Shown piece after piece: positions 1,007 through 44,996 of a DNA stretch of 64,000 bases; positions within the stretch are counted from its first letter, which is position 1; every line of letters starts with the position of its first letter. Origin of the DNA: Escherichia phage RB16; the sequence record NC_014467.1. One strand, 5' to 3'. Under the pieces are notes generated by a model. That model was not told the DNA's origin. It made no database searches and saw nothing but the letters and a program-made list of their open reading frames with translations. The translations under genes were made by a program, and so were the position numbers.

Positions 1007-1237
1007 TTATTTTTTCAGGTTGATTAACCAAGACGGTTGGGTTTCTAAACTAACCTCTTTCCAAGCATATGCAACACTATAACCGGAATACGTCTGACAT
1101 ACAACAGCATTTTCATTTAAATATTTCACTTTGTGATCTGCCTCTTGTTCATTCAGGGCAGCACATACGATATTCTTTTCATACACTCCGCCGTTTGGCT
1201 GGATAATTGTTTCTTCAATCAGATAAACGCTGTTCAT
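1007..1237 (-). CDS. hypothetical protein (76 aa)
   Basis: ORF track; co-directional, stop/start abut neighbours. Confidence 0.4.
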   Translation of the reverse strand: MNSVYLIEETIIQPNGGVYEKNIVCAALNEQEADHKVKYLNENAVVCQTYSGYSVAYAWKEVSLETQPSWLINLKK

Positions 1238-1446
1238 GCTAATTCCTTCTCGATTGCTTCGATGATGTGGAGAACATAACCATTCAATCTTTCGGCTTGT
1301 TCAGCGGCTTCGATCATACCGTAACGAGGAACTTCTAAAACGTCGAAACCTTCGATCGGGTTGCTTTCGATATCAACGATGATATAGCTTTCACCGATTA
1401 CCGCACCTTTTCTCCAGTCTTTTACGAATTTCATTTTAGCGTTCAT
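1234..1446 (-). CDS. hypothetical protein (70 aa)
   Basis: ORF track; preceded by promoter cassette at 1485-1518 and SD. Confidence 0.45.
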   Translation of the reverse strand: MNAKMKFVKDWRKGAVIGESYIIVDIESNPIEGFDVLEVPRYGMIEAAEQAERLNGYVLHIIEAIEKELA

Positions 1447-1484
1447 TTTCTCGTTCCTTTTGTCTGTTCCGTTTCAACACCCCT

Positions 1485-35560: not shown

Positions 35561-36220
35561 TTAAAAGTTAAATACATTCAGTACGTTAGTTTTCAATTCA
35601 CCAAGCGTACCATTATTTAGGATGATAATATCAGTGGGTTGCGGTTTCAAGCCTTTCTCAGTTGAATGACTATCATCTTCCCCCGTATCACGTTCGATGA
35701 ATACAAATTTAGTCCCGAACTTGCTCAGGTATTTATATTCATGTTTTTGTCGAACGTCTGTAATGATAAAGTGATCTTTATCGGATTTCAAGATTTTCTT
35801 CAATACAATGTCAGTCCATACAGAATCGTTCTCATTGCAAACGATGTCAGTACCGAAAACCTGCATCAAACGGCGTATTGTCCAGGGATGTTTGTTTGTT
35901 TGGCAAATTTCATACGCGATGATATCAGCATTATTAAGCCAGTACCCGCGTTTAGTCAACGATTCAATGCCATTAGCAAACACCATACGCGCACATTCGT
36001 TAGACATCAACAGGGGTGCTTCCCGATCCCCTGAATAGAATGGGTTTGTTTTAGAGAGTTCTCGCAGATAGCGATTCCCTGATGCAGACATTCCATTTCT
36101 CAGGATACTCTTTATTTCATCAGCAAGCGCGATTGCTTCAACGTTCTGATAGTTATCCAAAACGAATTGAGAAACGGTGTCTTTACCTGTTCTCTTTTTT
36201 CCGCAAATACCATAAATCAT
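35561..36220 (-). CDS. 1: deoxynucleoside monophosphate kinase gp1
   Basis: P-loop GKKRTGKDT at N-terminus; T4 gene 1 synteny. Confidence 0.85.
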   Translation of the reverse strand: MIYGICGKKRTGKDTVSQFVLDNYQNVEAIALADEIKSILRNGMSASGNRYLRELSKTNPFYSGDREAPLLMSNECARMVFANGIESLTKRGYWLNNADIIAYEICQTNKHPWTIRRLMQVFGTDIVCNENDSVWTDIVLKKILKSDKDHFIITDVRQKHEYKYLSKFGTKFVFIERDTGEDDSHSTEKGLKPQPTDIIILNNGTLGELKTNVLNVFNF

Positions 36221-36756
36221 GATTCTTTTTTCCGTGGAGTCGGCACGAGTACCTTTCCGTCTATCTCAATTTCCATATGTGCGAAGTTGAACATAGCCAT
36301 ACAGGAAACGGCTTCATCCGAGTCATTAGTGTACATAAGCTCAAGCTCTCCCAGGTTGGAGGGCCAAGCACCATAAAAGCGAAATGTCGCCACAGTTTTT
36401 GATTGCGAGTTATCCAGGATGTGTAAAGCCATTGCCTGTTGTGGTTCACTCCATCGAATTGAATCGAAGGTGTTAAAATCACAGGTTCCAAGCATCCACA
36501 GGTAAACACCCAGATACGAACGCAATTCTTCATCAACAGCAAAACGGATAGTCAACGGATCGAACTCCATTGCAGATCCAGGGATTTTCCCACGGATCAT
36601 AGGGTTCAATGGTACTTCCGTAATTGGAATGTTGACAGAAGGTAGTGTAACACCCTGAATTTGTAGTTTCAACCCTTTCATATAATCATTATCAGGAATA
36701 TCTAACATAAAGTTAGTTGGTGAAATCTGGTTCAGGATCATAGCAGTAGTGTTCAT
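36217..36756 (-). CDS. 3: tail completion / sheath stabiliser protein gp3
   Basis: 179 aa, position and size match T4 gp3; late-promoter-like box upstream. Confidence 0.7.
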   Translation of the reverse strand: MNTTAMILNQISPTNFMLDIPDNDYMKGLKLQIQGVTLPSVNIPITEVPLNPMIRGKIPGSAMEFDPLTIRFAVDEELRSYLGVYLWMLGTCDFNTFDSIRWSEPQQAMALHILDNSQSKTVATFRFYGAWPSNLGELELMYTNDSDEAVSCMAMFNFAHMEIEIDGKVLVPTPRKKES

Positions 36757-36777
36757 TAATGATCTCCATTTTGTAGA

Positions 36778-36785
36778 TATTTATG
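36778..36785 (-). promoter_or_regulatory. late-promoter-like box CATAAATA
   Basis: minus strand CATAAATA 22 nt upstream of gp3 ATG (T4 late consensus TATAAATA). Confidence 0.4.
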
Positions 36786-36790
36786 TAGAC

Positions 36791-36958
36791 CGTGAGCGAA
36801 GCGAACACACGAACGAAGTGAGTGTTTTTTAACTCAACTACATAATTATATATTTATATTTTATATATAGAGAAAAATGTAGTTTTTGGTATAGTTTTTA
36901 ACCAACTGTAAACTATCCGTCTTCGCTTCGCTTGACGGAACTCGCTTCGCTCGTGATC
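36791..36958. repeat. inverted repeat (GAGCGAAGCGA / TCGCTTCGCTC) flanking an approximately 100-nt AT-rich core
   Basis: 11-bp arms at 36794-36804 and 36941-36951 plus additional CGAAG/CTTCG matches; central A+T tract TATATATTTATATTTTATATATAG. Confidence 0.6.
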
Positions 36959-36970
36959 TTGAAAAACTAT

Positions 36971-36999
36971 TTGACCCTTTCAATAAATAGGTATATCAT
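36971..36999 (+). promoter_or_regulatory. possible early (TTGACC...TATCAT) and late-like (AATAAATA) promoter elements upstream of the CTS-protein gene
   Basis: TTGACC at 36971-36976; AATAAATA at 36982-36989; ATG at 37028. Confidence 0.35.
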
Positions 37000-37027
37000 A
37001 CCTATACTTTCAAAAGAGATTGAAAAC

Positions 37028-37813
37028 ATGAAATCATTCAAAGAACTACTGTCTGAATCTGTTCAGACCAAAAAATTTGCTAAAACTGTTGATCTGGTTG
37101 ACCGTGGTAATGCTTCAAAAGGTCAGATCGGTTTCCTGCACTTTGCACACGGTGCTGATTACGATGTGTATGCGCCGGACTCTCACGATCTCGCCTACTT
37201 CGGTAAAGGTGTTGTTCGCCTGAAAGGTAAAACCACTGGTAAAACTCAGGCTGCATATGTTGACTGGGCGAAAGGTACGGTTTCTTTCTATAGCGGCGAT
37301 CCGGCAGATGACCTGAAATTCGACAAGCCAGCGAAATTCAAAGGCGCTTCCCTGTACAAAGAAGCCGAAGAAAATCTGGATCTGTATAATCAGTTAGCGG
37401 AAGACTTCGAAATTGATGTACCGATGGATGAAGCACTGGTGAAAGGTAAGGTGTACAAGCTCCCAAGCAACGATATGCGCTTGCTGTATACCGGACGTAC
37501 CAAAAACAAGCCTACAGGTGAATACGCTGTGTTTACGGTTGTAGATGCCTCCGGTAAGCCTCGTCTGGTATCGGGTAAACGATTTACCCAGGAATACAAA
37601 GGCGATATGCTGTCTAAACTGGTTCTCGCTGAATCGGAAGATCTGAACGAGGCCGCTAAAGGCATTCGCGAAAAAGTTATTGCGGTGTTGGTGAAGCGCG
37701 GGTTTAACGAAAAAGATGCAGAAAAGATGGTTGATAAAAACCTAAAAGATGCGATGAAAGTTCGCCCTGGTGCAACTCCAGGAAAACTAGCGGAAATCGT
37801 GAGCACCTTGTAA
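37028..37813 (+). CDS. internal head protein-like, with T4-type capsid targeting sequence
   Basis: N-terminus MKSFKELLSE parallels T4 IP CTS MKTYQEFIAE with LxE protease site; Lys-rich 261-aa protein; start reset from ORF-track 36932. Confidence 0.55.
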   Translation: MKSFKELLSESVQTKKFAKTVDLVDRGNASKGQIGFLHFAHGADYDVYAPDSHDLAYFGKGVVRLKGKTTGKTQAAYVDWAKGTVSFYSGDPADDLKFDKPAKFKGASLYKEAEENLDLYNQLAEDFEIDVPMDEALVKGKVYKLPSNDMRLLYTGRTKNKPTGEYAVFTVVDASGKPRLVSGKRFTQEYKGDMLSKLVLAESEDLNEAAKGIREKVIAVLVKRGFNEKDAEKMVDKNLKDAMKVRPGATPGKLAEIVSTL

Positions 37814-37818
37814 AAATA

Positions 37819-37849
37819 AAGCCCCTTCCTTTCGGTTGGGGCTTTTTTT
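37819..37849. terminator. bidirectional intrinsic terminator
   Basis: AGCCCC-TTCCTTTCGGTT-GGGGCT + T7; between convergent genes. Confidence 0.65.
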
Positions 37850-38702
37850 AATATCGGTTCCAAACTTTTTTCGCGCTGTATGGTTTTCCTTTCGACTGGA
37901 AAGCCTGTGTAGGCAACCAAACTGCTTTCGCCCAGTCTTTTGGGGCTATCTCTGCAAGAGGTGATCGCAGGTGCGCAGGTAAGTATGCTTTGATCATTTG
38001 ATCTGCACCGCGCATCCCTTTCACGTTGTTCCAGTTGATTTTCAATCTGGTTTTGTTTGAAAGGCGATCTGTTGATCCGTATCCACGTTTCAAAAGTTCT
38101 TCTAAAAACTCTTGACGGGCTTTAGGTGGCGCATAGTGCAAGTTCAAACCGTACAGAACTAAATTACCCGCTTTAGAACGTCCTGAACCCAGGAAGATGA
38201 TTAGCGGGAACCGATCCCAGTATGGTAGGGTATCTTTGTATTTCGCGTCATACACGAACGTATACAATCGCCCTGTTGCTGGTTTCGCTACCCTGTGCGT
38301 TTTGATGCTGGTTTTGATGAAGTCACCAAACCAATCGGTTGAATCCTTTTGACGTTTCGCAGCAGAAACACCCACTGTAATTTTCCGTAAACTATTTCGG
38401 AAGTCGTTGATGATGTCAACTGTATGTTTTTTGCGATAGTCATTGCGTTTTCGTCGGGCTTCGGTTTCTGCTGTACGTCGCGAGATTTCATCATCAATCT
38501 GCTGTTTATAGCGGTGCATAGACTTTGTGAACGTTGCGTATGCAATCCCGTTTTCGTCCGCGAATTTTTTGGCTGTCATGCCTTTTAATTTTGCGCGTCT
38601 GAATTTAACACCCAGTTCAACCCATTCACCAAGTTTTCGCTTCGGTGGCGGTTTCGGCTTATCTTCTTCTGCGATGATCTCAAACTCAAATATAAAACTC
38701 AT
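37848..38702 (-). CDS. 2: DNA end protector protein gp2
   Basis: 284 aa basic protein in T4 gene 2 position between 3 and 4. Confidence 0.7.
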   Translation of the reverse strand: MSFIFEFEIIAEEDKPKPPPKRKLGEWVELGVKFRRAKLKGMTAKKFADENGIAYATFTKSMHRYKQQIDDEISRRTAETEARRKRNDYRKKHTVDIINDFRNSLRKITVGVSAAKRQKDSTDWFGDFIKTSIKTHRVAKPATGRLYTFVYDAKYKDTLPYWDRFPLIIFLGSGRSKAGNLVLYGLNLHYAPPKARQEFLEELLKRGYGSTDRLSNKTRLKINWNNVKGMRGADQMIKAYLPAHLRSPLAEIAPKDWAKAVWLPTQAFQSKGKPYSAKKVWNRY

Positions 38703-39388
38703 AATTCCCTCCGTTTACACTTATCACCATGCCAACGTTTAAACATACCCGGCCTGAAACTATTACCGCAGTATTGGCATTCCATTTTCTCTATATTTGA
38801 AACTGCTTCCCTTATGCGTATCTTTTGTTCTTCTGTTCGGGGTTTCCCCTTTCTAGCATCTGCTGATTTTTTTACTGCATCAGGGGGCATAGTTTTTCCT
38901 GAACATGAGATAGAAATTTTTTGTTTATGTTCTTCTGATAGAGATCTCCCTACCTTAGCGTTTCTCATCTTTTCTATAGACTGTTCGTTGAATAGCCCTG
39001 GTCGAGTTTTACCTTTCAATGGATTGACCCACCCATCTTTCATTTTGCGAGATTTACCTATTTTTGCTTTACTCATTTTCTCTCGCGTTTCGCTGGATGC
39101 TGTTGTGTATGATACCCCACCCTCCCCACCAATTTTTAAATTGTATGTGTGTTCCGATAGCACGAACTCGCGATTGACAAGTTCCTTTTCTTTATCATAC
39201 ATTTCAGAAGGGGTGTCAAACACATACAATATACTTTTTGTGAAGTTGTGTATGCCATATTTGGTTTGTGCTTTCAATAAAAGTTTACCAGACCCCATAT
39301 ACGAATCATTCACATCTGTGGTTGCATGTGCGCCGATATAAATTTTATCGTTGATATTGTTTTTAATCTGATAGACTAAATATTTCAT
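38699..39388 (-). CDS. GIY-YIG homing endonuclease (Seg-like)
   Basis: MKYLVYQIKNNINDKIYIGAH (GIY...YIG), conserved R/E/N downstream, NUMOD3-like EKMSKAKIGK / EKMRNAKVGR repeats; inserted between genes 2 and 4. Confidence 0.75.
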   Translation of the reverse strand: MKYLVYQIKNNINDKIYIGAHATTDVNDSYMGSGKLLLKAQTKYGIHNFTKSILYVFDTPSEMYDKEKELVNREFVLSEHTYNLKIGGEGGVSYTTASSETREKMSKAKIGKSRKMKDGWVNPLKGKTRPGLFNEQSIEKMRNAKVGRSLSEEHKQKISISCSGKTMPPDAVKKSADARKGKPRTEEQKIRIREAVSNIEKMECQYCGNSFRPGMFKRWHGDKCKRREL

Positions 39389-39858
39389 TTCTCGTACCCT
39401 TTCCATCCAAAAACACGTTTGAGGGTGTCTTCGGTTATGATCTTGAACTCCCATCCTTTTGCTTTACATGCAGCATTGGCGGCTTTCCATTTGTCTATAT
39501 TTATGGAGTAAACATAGAGAGCATCAACAAATTTCTTTTTGTTGTGAACGTTGTTGTTCGCTGGCTTAGGTGGGGGCAATGTTTCTTTCATCGGTTTGAC
39601 TTCCCATAGGTAGGTCACACCGTTATCCATCTCAACATAAAAATCCATGAAGTAACGCCGTCTTTTACCGTCTGCGTTGCTGAAATAAGGTATCACAACC
39701 TCTTCACTGTTCCAGCGTTTCACATGCGGATTCCTGTCAAGCCAGTTCATTATATATTTTTCCCAGCTTGACCGATACGTTATCTTTCGAGGATCGCCTT
39801 TATATTTTGTTATGTTCTGGGGCATAAAAGACCCCTTGTACGTCTGTCTTCCAGCCAT
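39385..39858 (-). CDS. 4: head completion protein gp4
   Basis: 157 aa, T4 gene 4 position. Confidence 0.7.
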   Translation of the reverse strand: MAGRQTYKGSFMPQNITKYKGDPRKITYRSSWEKYIMNWLDRNPHVKRWNSEEVVIPYFSNADGKRRRYFMDFYVEMDNGVTYLWEVKPMKETLPPPKPANNNVHNKKKFVDALYVYSINIDKWKAANAACKAKGWEFKIITEDTLKRVFGWKGYEK

Positions 39859-42222: not shown

Positions 42223-44295
42223 ATGATCATGGATTATGAATCCATCATTGATGGAATTATGCAAGATTTTCAGCATCCATGTGATGCTGAAATACCTGCT
42301 GGATCGTACAGACGTATTATCTGGCAGGGACATACAGAAGACTACCCCGCTGTCGGGGTAGAATGGGATACTGAAATAATTCCGATCGGGGCGCATCTTT
42401 ACACACAATCCCCTTTCGGACAGAAAAGCGATCCGCTTCCGGTAGTTAACTCCCCTGGAACCGATCCAGGAACTGGGGAAGCAACTGGGATTCTTGTAGA
42501 AAAGATAGGTTATTATTTCGCCACACAACAGGAGATTGATGACTATATCACTTCTATCGGGGCAACAAAACTAACTGGTAATGATTGGTACGGCGCGGAT
42601 CTGACAAAAGCAAACCTGTATAAAAACCCTGGGGAACTCGCGATGTATAAGGTCGAGAACTCTGGAGGTTATTTGCTTACTTCTGGCCCACGTTGCGATC
42701 AACGCATCAGACAGGCATATAATGAGGACACAGGCGCGTTTACAAGCATTGATTACTATTGGAATGGTAATCGTATTGCCTACATGAAACACGACGACAC
42801 AGGGGCGCACAATTGCAAATACGTGGGTATGGTGGTTAACACCAACGCCGACACAAGCATTCCCCCTGTACCTCCGGCTATGCCGTCAATTTACGGGGCA
42901 TTGCCTAGCGAAATTTCAATGATGCGCTCCGGTTTGGGTTGTCTTCCTGCAACGGTAGGTTTTGCGTACACGAATATCAGTGATGCAATGCTATCCGCAT
43001 GGAACGAAACGCGCAAGTCGTTTAAGCTCGTGTTTGATATGCTTACGGGTATCACTAAAACGGGTTCCGGTGGTATCTCCACGATGTACGATGGTTTGTC
43101 TATCGCAATGGAGGAAATCACAGCAGGTGCTCTTGCGTTGTCACAGCAAGCATGGCAAGCCGCAATTAAGGTGTTCAAAGATATTATGTCTTCTGCGTTA
43201 AACATCGTAGGTGGTGCGTGGAACATGATAAAGAGTTTTTTACCGACTGTTACGATTCTGGGTGTTTCAATAAACATCTATGATTTGATTTTTGGTGATA
43301 ACTCAGTACAGACACTGAAAGATTCATTCCAAGCGATCATTGATGCTGGTACAGAAACCTATGAGAACGTCATAAACGCAATATACAGCGCTATAGGCAG
43401 TGCATACAATTATACCGTTGAATATGTCAAGGCTGGCGCTCGCGACCTCGTGGATGCTTGCAGTACGCTTTTTGACTGGTGTATTACCATGTTTCAGAAT
43501 GGTTGTGTTGCTCTGGTGGATCTGTACGGACGAATAATGCAAATCTGGGCTATGCCTCCAACGGTTCCAAACCCTTTATGGGCTGCTGTTCTGGCTATCC
43601 GTAACATTATGATGCAAATCAAACCGCTTGATGTGATCCTGGGTGGAAACTTCCCTGGGTTTACGGCAATGGATTTGTACCAAATGGCACAGGAGAAGGT
43701 GAAAGAGTTTATCGATCAGTCGTATGCGCAAATACGCGTGTATTATGATCAGGTTAAGGATCTGTATAACACACTGACTACACAGACACAAGAAAGGGAT
43801 GCGATTAAACGCAAGTTCGATCAATACCTAAACTGGATGTGGGAACCTGTAAAGGAAGCAACGACTGCTGCTTATCAGGCTGCACTTGATGCCGCTAACG
43901 CTGCTGTGAATGCGACTAAGGCCGCATATGAGGGAATCAAAGCACAGATTGCTAATCTGCAAAATGGGATGAAAGACACCTACAGCATGGCAATGGCTGA
44001 ACTCAAGAAACTGCCTGTAATGGCTCAGATTAACCAGTTCTTAGGTTACTGTGGGGTTGCATTCGATGACCTGTTAAAAACGTATGAGAACGCGCTGACG
44101 GGCGCACAATCGCTATATAAAAACTTTGTTGACAGTTCCCGCTCGTTTAAGGACACATGCAAGGTGATTTATAACCAGATTTGTACGCTTGCTCTAAGTA
44201 AGGTAACTCAATACGTAAACAAATTATTGTCATTAATCGGACTCGCGATCACATTCGGTTCAATTAGTGTTTGCGTCCCTATGGTTCAATACTAA
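42223..44295 (+). CDS. large hypothetical protein (690 aa) in the gp5-gp6 interval
   Basis: uninterrupted 2073-nt ORF starting 2 nt after gp5 stop; Pro-rich linker PPVPPAMPS; long Ala/Ile/Leu-rich C-terminal region; hydrophobic C-terminus. Confidence 0.7.
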   Translation: MIMDYESIIDGIMQDFQHPCDAEIPAGSYRRIIWQGHTEDYPAVGVEWDTEIIPIGAHLYTQSPFGQKSDPLPVVNSPGTDPGTGEATGILVEKIGYYFATQQEIDDYITSIGATKLTGNDWYGADLTKANLYKNPGELAMYKVENSGGYLLTSGPRCDQRIRQAYNEDTGAFTSIDYYWNGNRIAYMKHDDTGAHNCKYVGMVVNTNADTSIPPVPPAMPSIYGALPSEISMMRSGLGCLPATVGFAYTNISDAMLSAWNETRKSFKLVFDMLTGITKTGSGGISTMYDGLSIAMEEITAGALALSQQAWQAAIKVFKDIMSSALNIVGGAWNMIKSFLPTVTILGVSINIYDLIFGDNSVQTLKDSFQAIIDAGTETYENVINAIYSAIGSAYNYTVEYVKAGARDLVDACSTLFDWCITMFQNGCVALVDLYGRIMQIWAMPPTVPNPLWAAVLAIRNIMMQIKPLDVILGGNFPGFTAMDLYQMAQEKVKEFIDQSYAQIRVYYDQVKDLYNTLTTQTQERDAIKRKFDQYLNWMWEPVKEATTAAYQAALDAANAAVNATKAAYEGIKAQIANLQNGMKDTYSMAMAELKKLPVMAQINQFLGYCGVAFDDLLKTYENALTGAQSLYKNFVDSSRSFKDTCKVIYNQICTLALSKVTQYVNKLLSLIGLAITFGSISVCVPMVQY

Positions 44296-44318: not shown

Positions 44319-44996
44319 ATGAATTACGATAGGATATATAAAGCTCTTATAGATAAGCGGAGGAAAACTCCGCTTAAAGACGGATATAAGGAACATCATC
44401 ACATCATTCCTAAATCTATGGGCGGTAGTGATGATTTTGATAATATGGTGTATTTGACAGCGAGAGAACATTTCGTTGCGCATCTTTTACTCGCTCGTAT
44501 ACATGGTGGTAAGATGTGGTTTGCTGTTGCTATGATGTGTGGGCGTGGATCAAGTAGCGCGAAAGGCGTTGTCCCTACTTCTCGAATATATGAGTTAGCC
44601 AAAAAACGGGTAGCCAATGAAAGAAGTATATTGTTTTCTGGGAAATTACATCCATTATACGGAAAGCCTTGTACAGAACAACGAAGAAAACGCATAGCTG
44701 AAGGACGTAAAGGGAAAACGCATACTCAGGAAACGAAACAGAAAATGTCTGAATCGAAGAAAGGATATAAACATACTCAGGAGACGAAACAGAAAATGTC
44801 TGAGTCACGGAAGAGACAAACACCTCCTACTCTGGGTAAAAAGTTACCTTCTCCATCAATCGAAAAAAGAAAGAAACTTAGTGAGGCTATTAAAAATCAG
44901 CCAATCATCAAATGTCCATATTGCGGGTTAGAAAGTAACAGCAAAGGAAATATGGTGAGGTTTCATTTCGACAACTGCAAATATAGGAAACCATGA
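44319..44996 (+). CDS. HNH homing endonuclease (Mob-like)
   Basis: HNH core EHHHIIPKSMGGSDDFDNMVYLTAREHFVAH; internal duplicated HTQETKQKMSES motif. Confidence 0.8.
   Translation: MNYDRIYKALIDKRRKTPLKDGYKEHHHIIPKSMGGSDDFDNMVYLTAREHFVAHLLLARIHGGKMWFAVAMMCGRGSSSAKGVVPTSRIYELAKKRVANERSILFSGKLHPLYGKPCTEQRRKRIAEGRKGKTHTQETKQKMSESKKGYKHTQETKQKMSESRKRQTPPTLGKKLPSPSIEKRKKLSEAIKNQPIIKCPYCGLESNSKGNMVRFHFDNCKYRKP
44721..44807 (+). repeat. 35-nt near-perfect tandem duplication inside HNH gene
   Basis: CATACTCAGGA(A/G)ACGAAACAGAAAATGTCTGA(A/G)TC at 44721-44755 and 44773-44807. Confidence 0.8.

Follow-up and report, generated by a model that had tools for sequence, protein, structure and literature searches.

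Injected internal proteins (IPs) are the first countermeasure of a phage to host defenses, and more than 30 variants of them occur in the T-even phages. A shared leader on otherwise unrelated bodies is the hallmark of the T4 capsid targeting sequence (CTS). To our knowledge, almost nothing is known about IPs outside the T-even genus. The RB43/KP15-type phages (Pseudotevenvirus and Slopekvirus) are widely isolated with a view to phage therapy against Klebsiella, Enterobacter, Cronobacter, and Citrobacter. In T4, the leaders of IPII and IPIII both read MKTYQEFIAE, and that of IPI reads MKTFKEFTST (T4 record); targeting is driven mainly by residues 4 and 7 and cleavage by residues 8 and 10 (PMC9026906). 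T4 Ip1, Ip2, and Ip3 all are injected inhibitors of GmrSD (Type IV restriction) enzymes, which attack glucosylated hydroxymethylcytosine (glucosyl-hmC) DNA (PMC12373910). Here, we describe an open reading frame (ORF) at positions 37028 to 37813 of a 64,000-nucleotide (nt) stretch of Escherichia phage RB16 (NC_014467.1; the window), lying between genes 3 and 2. Judged from its sequence, its product is reasonably likely to be a T4-type internal protein that, in the RB43/KP15 lineage, is targeted to the capsid, processed by the prohead protease, and passed into the host along with the DNA, and it would probably be the first recognizable IP of this group of phages.

The ORF is intact, with an ATG at 37028, a TAA at 37811 to 37813, and 261 codons, and the encoded protein is 100% identical to Lw1_gp190 of Escherichia phage Lw1. 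An earlier note on this DNA had placed an ORF starting MKSFKELLSE between genes 3 and 2 and had likened its N terminus to the T4 CTS; coordinates, translation, and the PHROG assignments of the neighbors agree with the first statement, and leader scoring bears out the second. The nine residues after the initial Met of 1,766 Met-initiated ORF starts (≥50 amino acids [aa]) in the Lw1 genome were scored against the T4 IPII/III and IPI leaders by BLOSUM ranking. Against the IPII/III leader, the ORF start ranks first of the 1,766 with a score of 23 (background mean, -7.2; standard deviation, 6.4; z ~4.7), and against the IPI leader it ranks second, indicating that the resemblance of this sequence to the T4 CTS exceeds chance. 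Aromatic or hydrophobic residues occupy positions 4 and 7 of MKSFKELLSE, and a prohead-protease-type (L/I)xE motif at positions 8 to 10 is followed by a small residue (LSE↓S; the arrow marks the predicted cleavage point). In all of 17 homologues, F4, K5, and E10 are unchanged, and hydrophobic residues fill positions 7 and 8; the replacements at position 7 (L/F/M/Y), together with synonymous changes, argue for selection on the protein rather than on the RNA. The leader ends in [LIM]xE followed by S or G in 13 of these homologues and in LNE↓V in the remainder. The mean entropy is 0.69 bits for aa 1 to 10, 1.65 bits for aa 11 to 32, and 0.55 bits for aa 33 to 110, and the leader is a conserved island with a variable linker behind it.

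As the window stops at gene 17, the head machinery was checked in Lw1. This close relative, ~97 to 99% identical to the window at the locus of the ORF, encodes gp20, gp67, gp68, gp21, gp22, gp23, and gp24, including the cognate gp21 protease and gp22 scaffold, and T4-like processing sites are found in gp22 (MLKEQLLAE↓A), in gp23 (FLAE↓AE at residue 65), and also in gp67 and gp68. Over the Lw1 ORFs the motif [LIM]xE[ASG] occurs at a background of 0.217 per 100 aa, and all four sites of gp23, taken as a positive control, fall within its propeptide, which validates the motif as a marker. The ORF has 4 such sites in 261 aa, compared to 0.57 expected (Poisson P = 0.003). When ORFs having three or more sites are compared, its site density is the fifth of 385 Lw1 ORFs, exceeded by one small ORF, gp22, gp68, and gp21. 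The sites have the same positions in every homologue and lie at module boundaries: LSE↓S behind the leader, MDE↓A before the middle domain, LAE↓S or LVE↓A after it, and LNE↓A or IDE↓A directly before the final module. Wherever a homologue has a last module, an [LI]xE[AS] site stands before it, and in the two-module variants P0009 and P0010 the site pair is repeated before the last module. In the AlphaFold model, the sites are situated in coil or in segments with a predicted local distance difference test score (pLDDT) of <50 (aa 6 to 14 and aa 203 to 210). The small ORF with the highest density in Lw1 is Lw1_gp107, adjoining gene 25, with 4 sites in 91 aa including an upstream extension; its copy in the window (1237 to 1473, minus strand) is 84% identical.

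The Lys content of the protein points in the same direction. The earlier note had called the protein Lys-rich and unlike the T4 IPs, and both descriptions hold: Lys makes up 13.0% of the residues, which places the protein in the top 2.2% of Lw1 ORFs of ≥100 aa (median, 6.7%) and within the 12.6 to 15% of the T4 IPs, and the isoelectric point (pI) of 8.9 is like that of IPI. No Pfam or NCBIfam match was obtained, phrog_7322, of unknown function, is the sole PHROG, and the BFVD fold matches include no T4 IP. The mature part has no homology to a known IP in Pfam, PHROGs, NCBIfam, or BFVD, which is no bar to membership in the class, since IPs are mutually unrelated. The AlphaFold model (mean pLDDT, 73) shows a beta-rich domain with a helix (aa ~20 to 127), a second beta domain (aa 128 to 172 and beyond), and a C-terminal three-helix bundle (aa 213 to 260). 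Neither beta domain has a match in the PDB, and the short homologues P0014 to P0016 are without the middle domain.

Remote relatives of aa 33 to 127 were found only in other T4-like phages: one is R9TJK7 of Vibrio phage nt-1 (Foldseek E = 7.5e-5), and the other forms the C-terminal portion of a protein of Aeromonas phage avDM6/CC2 that is 305 aa long; both proteins are uncharacterized. An enzymatic N-terminal domain was considered and rejected. Residues H38, H41, D51, H53, and D54 are invariant in close homologues and replaced in the distant P0017 and P0020; they are thus not catalytic, and an enzyme is unlikely. In the avDM6 protein (OP380601.1, 3297 to 4214), the homologue of the N-terminal domain stands behind the LxE-rich linkers ALMESLLES and KLMEEVMINE, and the N-terminal 180 aa are common to many Aeromonas T4-like phages with other C termini, suggesting that the same kind of module shuffling takes place in another subfamily.

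The C terminus is the part of the protein that is exchanged. Homologues end in one of three unrelated modules, in two of them in tandem, or in none, as in RB43. A separate 53-aa paralogue of module A, the module carried by the ORF, is encoded in the Lw1 early region (Lw1_gp017; 52% identity, E = 6.5e-12), module B is 50 to 55% identical to free-standing ORFs of ~59 aa in T1-like, Webervirus, and Pantoea siphophages, and module C was found in three Klebsiella phages only, so that two of the three module types are also encoded on their own by small phage genes. With the 58-aa module as the query, a word-indexed protein search returned two proteins only. Module A resembles domain III of RuvA in four independent searches, none significant singly (phmmer, E = 0.48; TIGR00084, E = 0.078), and a profile built from 10 family members gives no RuvA match; homology was therefore rejected and the similarity kept as a fold resemblance only, small three-helix bundles being known to recur through convergence. 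Matches of the C-terminal module to Pfam DUF7421, Nmad5, ankyrin, and a Francisella virulence factor were set aside as below threshold or as short and of low complexity.

These two features, a conserved body and an exchanged C terminus, bear on an alternative in which the protein is a prohead core or scaffold accessory. Brought to the assembling core by its leader, it would assist in building the head or condensing the DNA, as T4 IPIII does in part; it would afterwards be broken down at its LxE sites and largely lost, or persist as inert DNA-associated filler, and it would have no effector role after injection. The low entropy of aa 33 to 110, the recurrence of the gene at one and the same position, with 177 or more phage records holding it, and a density of LxE sites like that of gp21, gp68, and gp22, which are cut up, all accord with such a role, and T4 IPIII mutants are slower in head assembly (PMC9026906). 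The high conservation of the body indeed suggests a packaging or DNA-associated role, which the body probably serves, and it fits head assembly or DNA packing at least as well as an antirestriction effector. However, an accessory of this kind does not account for a C terminus at which three or more unrelated modules replace one another, two of which also occur on their own, one in the Lw1 early region and the other in unrelated siphophages: module swapping and free-standing copies are expected of adaptive, host-directed functions and not of scaffold parts, and the swappable mini-domains look like the adaptive, host-directed part of the protein. Moreover, all three T4 counterparts, Ip1, Ip2, and Ip3, proved to be injected inhibitors (PMC12373910). 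We therefore hold a purely scaffolding role to be rather improbable.

The regulatory region also resembles that of the T4 IP genes. The ORF is preceded by a sigma70-like promoter of the early type, both hexamers of which, with a spacing of 16 to 17 nt, are kept in phages Miller, RB43, KP15 (TTTACC-17-TACTAT), and Phynn despite diverged flanks, and a hairpin is centered on its -10 hexamer (Table 1). At T4 ipI, ipII, and ipIII, the promoter reads GTTTAC-17-TAnnAT, a hairpin covers the -10 box, and TATAAATA does not occur within 130 nt; these promoters fold alike (-8.1, -13.0, and -5.8 kcal/mol, respectively). Promoter/stem-loop (PeSL-like) elements are typical of T-even IP loci, as described by Arbiol et al. 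(PMC2839356). Since the T4 ip promoters share this design and such elements are typical of IP loci, the early-type promoter favors an IP. Promoter and hairpin are present at the ORF, but the locus is that between genes 3 and 2; the T-even IP loci are not recognizable in Lw1.

Late expression was considered as well. A canonical T4 late promoter for the ORF can be dismissed: TATAAATA is missing from the whole plus strand of the window despite 24 kb of late genes, and the TATAAATA of gene 3, at 36858, is on the minus strand. CTAAATA instead stands before late genes (Table 1), at a distance of 35 to 41 nt for genes 53 and 7, making the TAAATA core in the spacer of the early promoter (36984 to 36989, starting 44 nt upstream of the ATG), which is invariant in five phages, a plausible late promoter. 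These sequences suggest that the late-promoter consensus has shifted in this lineage. Codon adaptation of the ORF to the major structural genes ranks 23rd of 249 (0.685, compared to a median of 0.589). A terminator equivalent to the one read from the sequence behind the ORF is annotated on both strands in Miller and KP15; a simple scanner missed the window copy. The intergenic region between gene 3 and the ORF (36757 to 37027) further contains GC-rich decamers, TCGCTTCGCT, at 36923 and 36942, with an inverted copy, AGCGAAGCGA, at 36795 to 36804; these bracket an AT-rich palindrome (36836 to 36884) that holds the minus-strand TATAAATA of gene 3.

A second leader-bearing protein was found in Lw1 through a codon adaptation index list, a looser leader scan, and BLOSUM ranking; a strict regular-expression scan misses it. 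Lw1_gp231 (KC801932.2, 142105 to 142938, minus strand), encoded near inh and hoc, is a 277-aa Zeta-toxin-like P-loop kinase (PF06414; E = 6e-8, 32.8 bits, above the cutoff) that starts MKSFKDFVSLDE↓A and has CAATAAATA ~35 nt upstream, the same motif as upstream of the ORF at 37028 to 37813. Aeromonas phage 65, in which the gene adjoins hoc, retains this leader (MKKFSEFIKLEE), and a Vibrio homologue has FLSE↓N. Two unrelated bodies under one leader, gp231 and the ORF protein, constitute the defining pattern of the T4 CTS, and by its sequence gp231 is a candidate packaged enzyme. Besides gp231 and the UvsW.1 homologue gp223 described below, Lw1 encodes no further CTS-like protein and no annotated IP, a point in favor of the ORF product as an IP.

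Several points weigh against a capsid-targeted protein. Lw1_gp223 (137018 to 137248, minus strand), an acidic 76-aa homologue of UvsW.1 and probably not a head protein, also starts MKSFTKFVNE↓A; it is either a third leader-bearing protein or a sign that the leader motif is not fully specific, and the motif alone is therefore no proof. The genes for gp21 and gp22 lie outside the window and were checked in Lw1 only, and the promoter and terminator assignments are consensus matches only. With 27.7 kDa and a net charge of +4, the mature protein exceeds the T4 IPs in size and is less basic than they are, and the predicted N-terminal fragment (aa 11 to 135) would be acidic, with a pI of 5.2. The body is strongly conserved and the position fixed, unlike those of the hypervariable T-even IPs. 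No virion proteome, N-terminal sequence, or injection assay was found in the literature for any carrier phage; virion proteomics was sought in that on KP15/KP27, Slopekvirus, Pseudotevenvirus, and RB43, and the sole T4-like Klebsiella virion proteome found is that of a Jiaodavirus, which is without the ORF family.

Some of these points would fit an ordinary, unpackaged cytoplasmic protein whose start reflects an amphipathic or translation-initiation preference (MK, Ser or Thr, and an aromatic residue) common among strongly expressed genes of T4-like phages and whose LxE motifs are incidental. Its sigma70-like promoter suggests early expression, gp223 starts alike, the C-terminal domain also exists as a free early protein, and Aeromonas phages carry the homologous domain at the C terminus of a protein in an early-looking gene block. 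Nevertheless, T4 ip genes likewise have early-type promoters, and the leader is kept at the amino acid level at exactly the positions defined in T4, with a freely varying linker next to it. The enrichment of sites and their placement at boundaries are unlikely to arise by chance, and the leader and the upstream motif occur together in two proteins of unrelated sequence. A cytoplasmic protein is accordingly unlikely in our judgment. The proposal of the earlier note that the protein is capsid targeted and processed is upheld in part, insofar as leader, conservation, protease and scaffold, sites, Lys content, promoter, and a second, unrelated protein under the same leader agree; its picture of an inserted gene applies relative to T4 only.

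For an internal protein, the following course can be proposed. The early-type promoter, and probably the late TAAATA motif as well, would drive its expression, and during prohead assembly the leader would dock the protein onto the gp22 scaffolding core. The gp21 prohead protease would cut after LSE10 and probably also at MDE135↓A, LAE202↓S, and LNE208↓A, yielding basic fragments of ~21 kDa (or of 13.8 and 7.5 kDa) and a 5.7-kDa three-helix domain, which would stay with the packaged DNA and enter the host together with it. The C-terminal mini-domain could then be the adaptive part, hitting a host target before phage gene expression, and Lw1_gp017, the paralogue encoded separately in the early region, would share its target with module A. 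As to the target, the analogy to GmrSD drawn in the earlier note appears weak. The enzymes inhibited by the T4 IPs attack glucosyl-hmC DNA, and Lw1 has no annotated hydroxymethylase (hmC) or glucosyltransferase genes; the target here is therefore probably a different one. More speculatively, and with only a small chance of being right as a whole, the gene may represent a natural delivery cassette: leader and carrier would load the prohead, and interchangeable C-terminal mini-effectors, equivalent to small early phage proteins and freed at tandem LxE sites, would be predelivered with the DNA, so that, with gp231, the pseudo-T-even phages would inject enzymes and inhibitors unrelated to the T-even IPs. 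In that case, module A could be a mimic of RuvA domain III directed against a host protein, for example, RuvB.

The gene itself is a fixed resident of its position. The window is Pseudotevenvirus DNA, in which the 3-kb stretch around the ORF is 99.3 to 99.6% identical to Lw1 and to Citrobacter phage KKP_3664 and the remainder is a mosaic with 81 to 99% identity to Lw1. In T4, genes 3 and 2 are spaced by 106 nt without an annotated ORF (T4 record), which agrees with the statement of the earlier note that T4 has no gene at this spot. The "new, inserted" gene of that note is inserted relative to T4 only, and it is not new to the databases: it is present as a "hypothetical protein" in at least 177 phage records, among them Lw1_gp190, KP15_152, and RB43ORF200w, and is carried by Pseudotevenvirus, Slopekvirus, Pantoea phage Phynn, and Yersinia phage JC221. 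The family is small, with 12 matches in a profile search of 1.84 billion representative proteins. The gene order, in which the ORF faces genes 2 and 4 and gene 53 follows on the strand of the ORF, is constant and includes the most distant homologue, P0020; within Pseudotevenvirus, Slopekvirus, and relatives, the gene is thus a fixed and well-conserved resident of the gene 3/gene 2 position, where genes for head completion and for the tail surround it. A literature search by locus tag found nothing on the gene, and no paper or annotation was found that ties this family, or any Pseudotevenvirus or Slopekvirus gene, to CTS-bearing internal proteins. What would be new is its assignment to that class, itself a known kind.

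The location between genes 3 and 2 and the label "tail completion protein" in vB_EkoM5VN and PF-CE2 could also be taken to mean that the gene encodes a neck or tail-completion structural protein. However, the ORF is on the strand opposite to both neighbors and has a promoter and a terminator of its own, no protein of this kind is required for the T4 tail and neck, module swapping is atypical of a structural joint, and no similarity to gp3, gp15, gp13, gp14, or another tail or neck protein was found in PHROGs, Pfam, the PDB, or BFVD, making this explanation very improbable. The database labels "tail completion protein" and "ribonuclease" are both unsupported by searches of PHROGs, Pfam, NCBIfam, the PDB, and BFVD.

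TABLE 1 Features of the ORF between genes 3 and 2 and of its surroundings in the window
Feature	Coordinates	Strand	Basis
Coding sequence, 261 aa plus stop; candidate capsid-targeted internal protein	37028..37813	+	phrog_7322; Lw1_gp190
CTS-like leader MKSFKELLSE, aa 1-10, ending in protease-type site LSE↓S	37028..37057	+	Leader ranking, conservation
Variable, low-confidence linker, aa 11-32	37058..37123	+	Entropy 1.65 bits; pLDDT <50 for aa 6-14
Conserved beta-rich domain and helix, aa 33-127	37124..37408	+	pLDDT 84-90; no solved relative
Middle beta domain, aa 128-202; MDE↓A at aa 133-136, LAE↓S at aa 200-203	37409..37633	+	Model, alignment
Disordered junction SEDLNE, aa 203-208, holding LNE↓A, second of the tandem sites LAE↓S and LNE↓A	37634..37651	+	pLDDT <50, aa 203-210
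C-terminal three-helix module A, aa 209-261, 5.7 kDa, pI 9.9	37652..37810	+	phrog_9411
Sigma70-like (early-type) promoter: -35 TTGACC 36971-36976, 17-nt spacer, -10 TATCAT 36994-36999	36971..36999	+	Scan, 10/12 matches
Late-promoter-like AATAAATA in early-promoter spacer, 39-46 nt upstream of ATG	36982..36989	+	TAAATA core
8-bp hairpin ATAGGTAT-ATC-ATACCTAT centered on -10 hexamer, PeSL-like	36987..37005	+	DNA fold -5.7 kcal/mol, z -2.7
Shine-Dalgarno-like AAGAGA, 8 nt before ATG	37014..37019	+	Sequence; ribosome-binding site annotation in phage Miller
Bidirectional intrinsic terminator AGCCCC...GGGGCT, A-run before, T-run after, common with gene 2	37812..37849	.	Read from sequence
CTAAATA before late genes	39868 (gene 53), 44293 (ORF at 44319), 46949 (gene 7)	+	26-41 nt upstream of starts
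Gene 3, head-proximal tail tube terminator, divergent neighbor	36217..36756	-	phrog_45 tail tube, E 4.6e-41
Gene 2, DNA end protector, convergent neighbor	37848..38702	-	phrog_429, E 1.2e-72

Several observations were made on the surrounding genes. The window gp2 starts MSFIFEFEIIAE↓EDKPKPPPKRK, a hydrophobic leader ending in IAE that is like a protease site, compared to MAIFQIINES in T4 gp2, and the region behind this leader matches the helix-turn-helix family phrog_32288. Between genes 2 and 4, a GIY-YIG/NUMOD3 seg-like homing endonuclease is encoded at 38699 to 39454 on the minus strand (phrog_314, E = 2.7e-52); ~680 bp of this stretch are missing from Lw1, Miller, and RB43, and the gene is annotated in Cronobacter phage GAP161. 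After gene 5, a 690-aa ORF (42223 to 44295, plus strand) is the counterpart of RB43 orf205w, which a 2025-26 preprint proposed to be an unusually large spike-tip protein replacing T4 gp5.4.

Should the assignment prove right, the packaged proteins of RB43/KP15-type phages would help to explain their host range and supply new anti-defense or host-takeover factors. A working leader would provide a route for loading foreign proteins into the capsids of these phages, as in T4, and the swappable C-terminal modules would be a short list of small domains likely active in the first seconds of infection.

Compared with known systems, the ORF protein comes closest to T4 IPI, IPII, and IPIII. Common to them are the leader MK(T/S)(Y/F)(Q/K)E(F/L), with an (L/I)xE end followed by Ala or Ser, a Lys content of ~13%, a promoter of the early type whose -10 box is overlaid by a hairpin, and a noncore position beside virion genes; the body of the ORF protein is unrelated to the other IPs, just as IPs are among themselves. 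The T4 IPs, however, are encoded at the 57B-ipI or e-ipIII-ipII loci and are single-domain proteins of 95 to 193 aa, whereas the ORF belongs to another genus, lies at the gene 3/gene 2 locus, and encodes 261 aa in three domains, with extra internal protease-type sites and a swappable C-terminal module. The bodies of T-even IPs are hypervariable, and that of the ORF protein is conserved. The new locus, the three domains, the internal sites, and the module-swapping C terminus are unusual for the CTS-bearing class. T4 Alt, gp67, gp68, and gp22, all substrates of gp21, are alike in being larger proteins that contain several (L/I)xE sites; Alt is shortened at both termini and enters the host by injection, and the prohead core proteins are cut into fragments. 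The ORF protein has no sequence or fold similarity to them and no ADP-ribosyltransferase motifs, and it differs from the acidic T4 core proteins, encoded within the gene 20 to 24 cluster, in its placement. From RuvA domain III and UBA-like three-helix domains, module A is set apart by sequence searches (E = 0.078 to 0.48). In its architecture of leader, carrier, and C-terminal cargo, the protein resembles the engineered CTS fusions of green fluorescent protein (IPIII/CTS-GFP), nuclease, and beta-galactosidase (Mullaney and Black, PMC9026906), in which protease sites free the cargo inside the head and of which the ORF protein would be a natural version.

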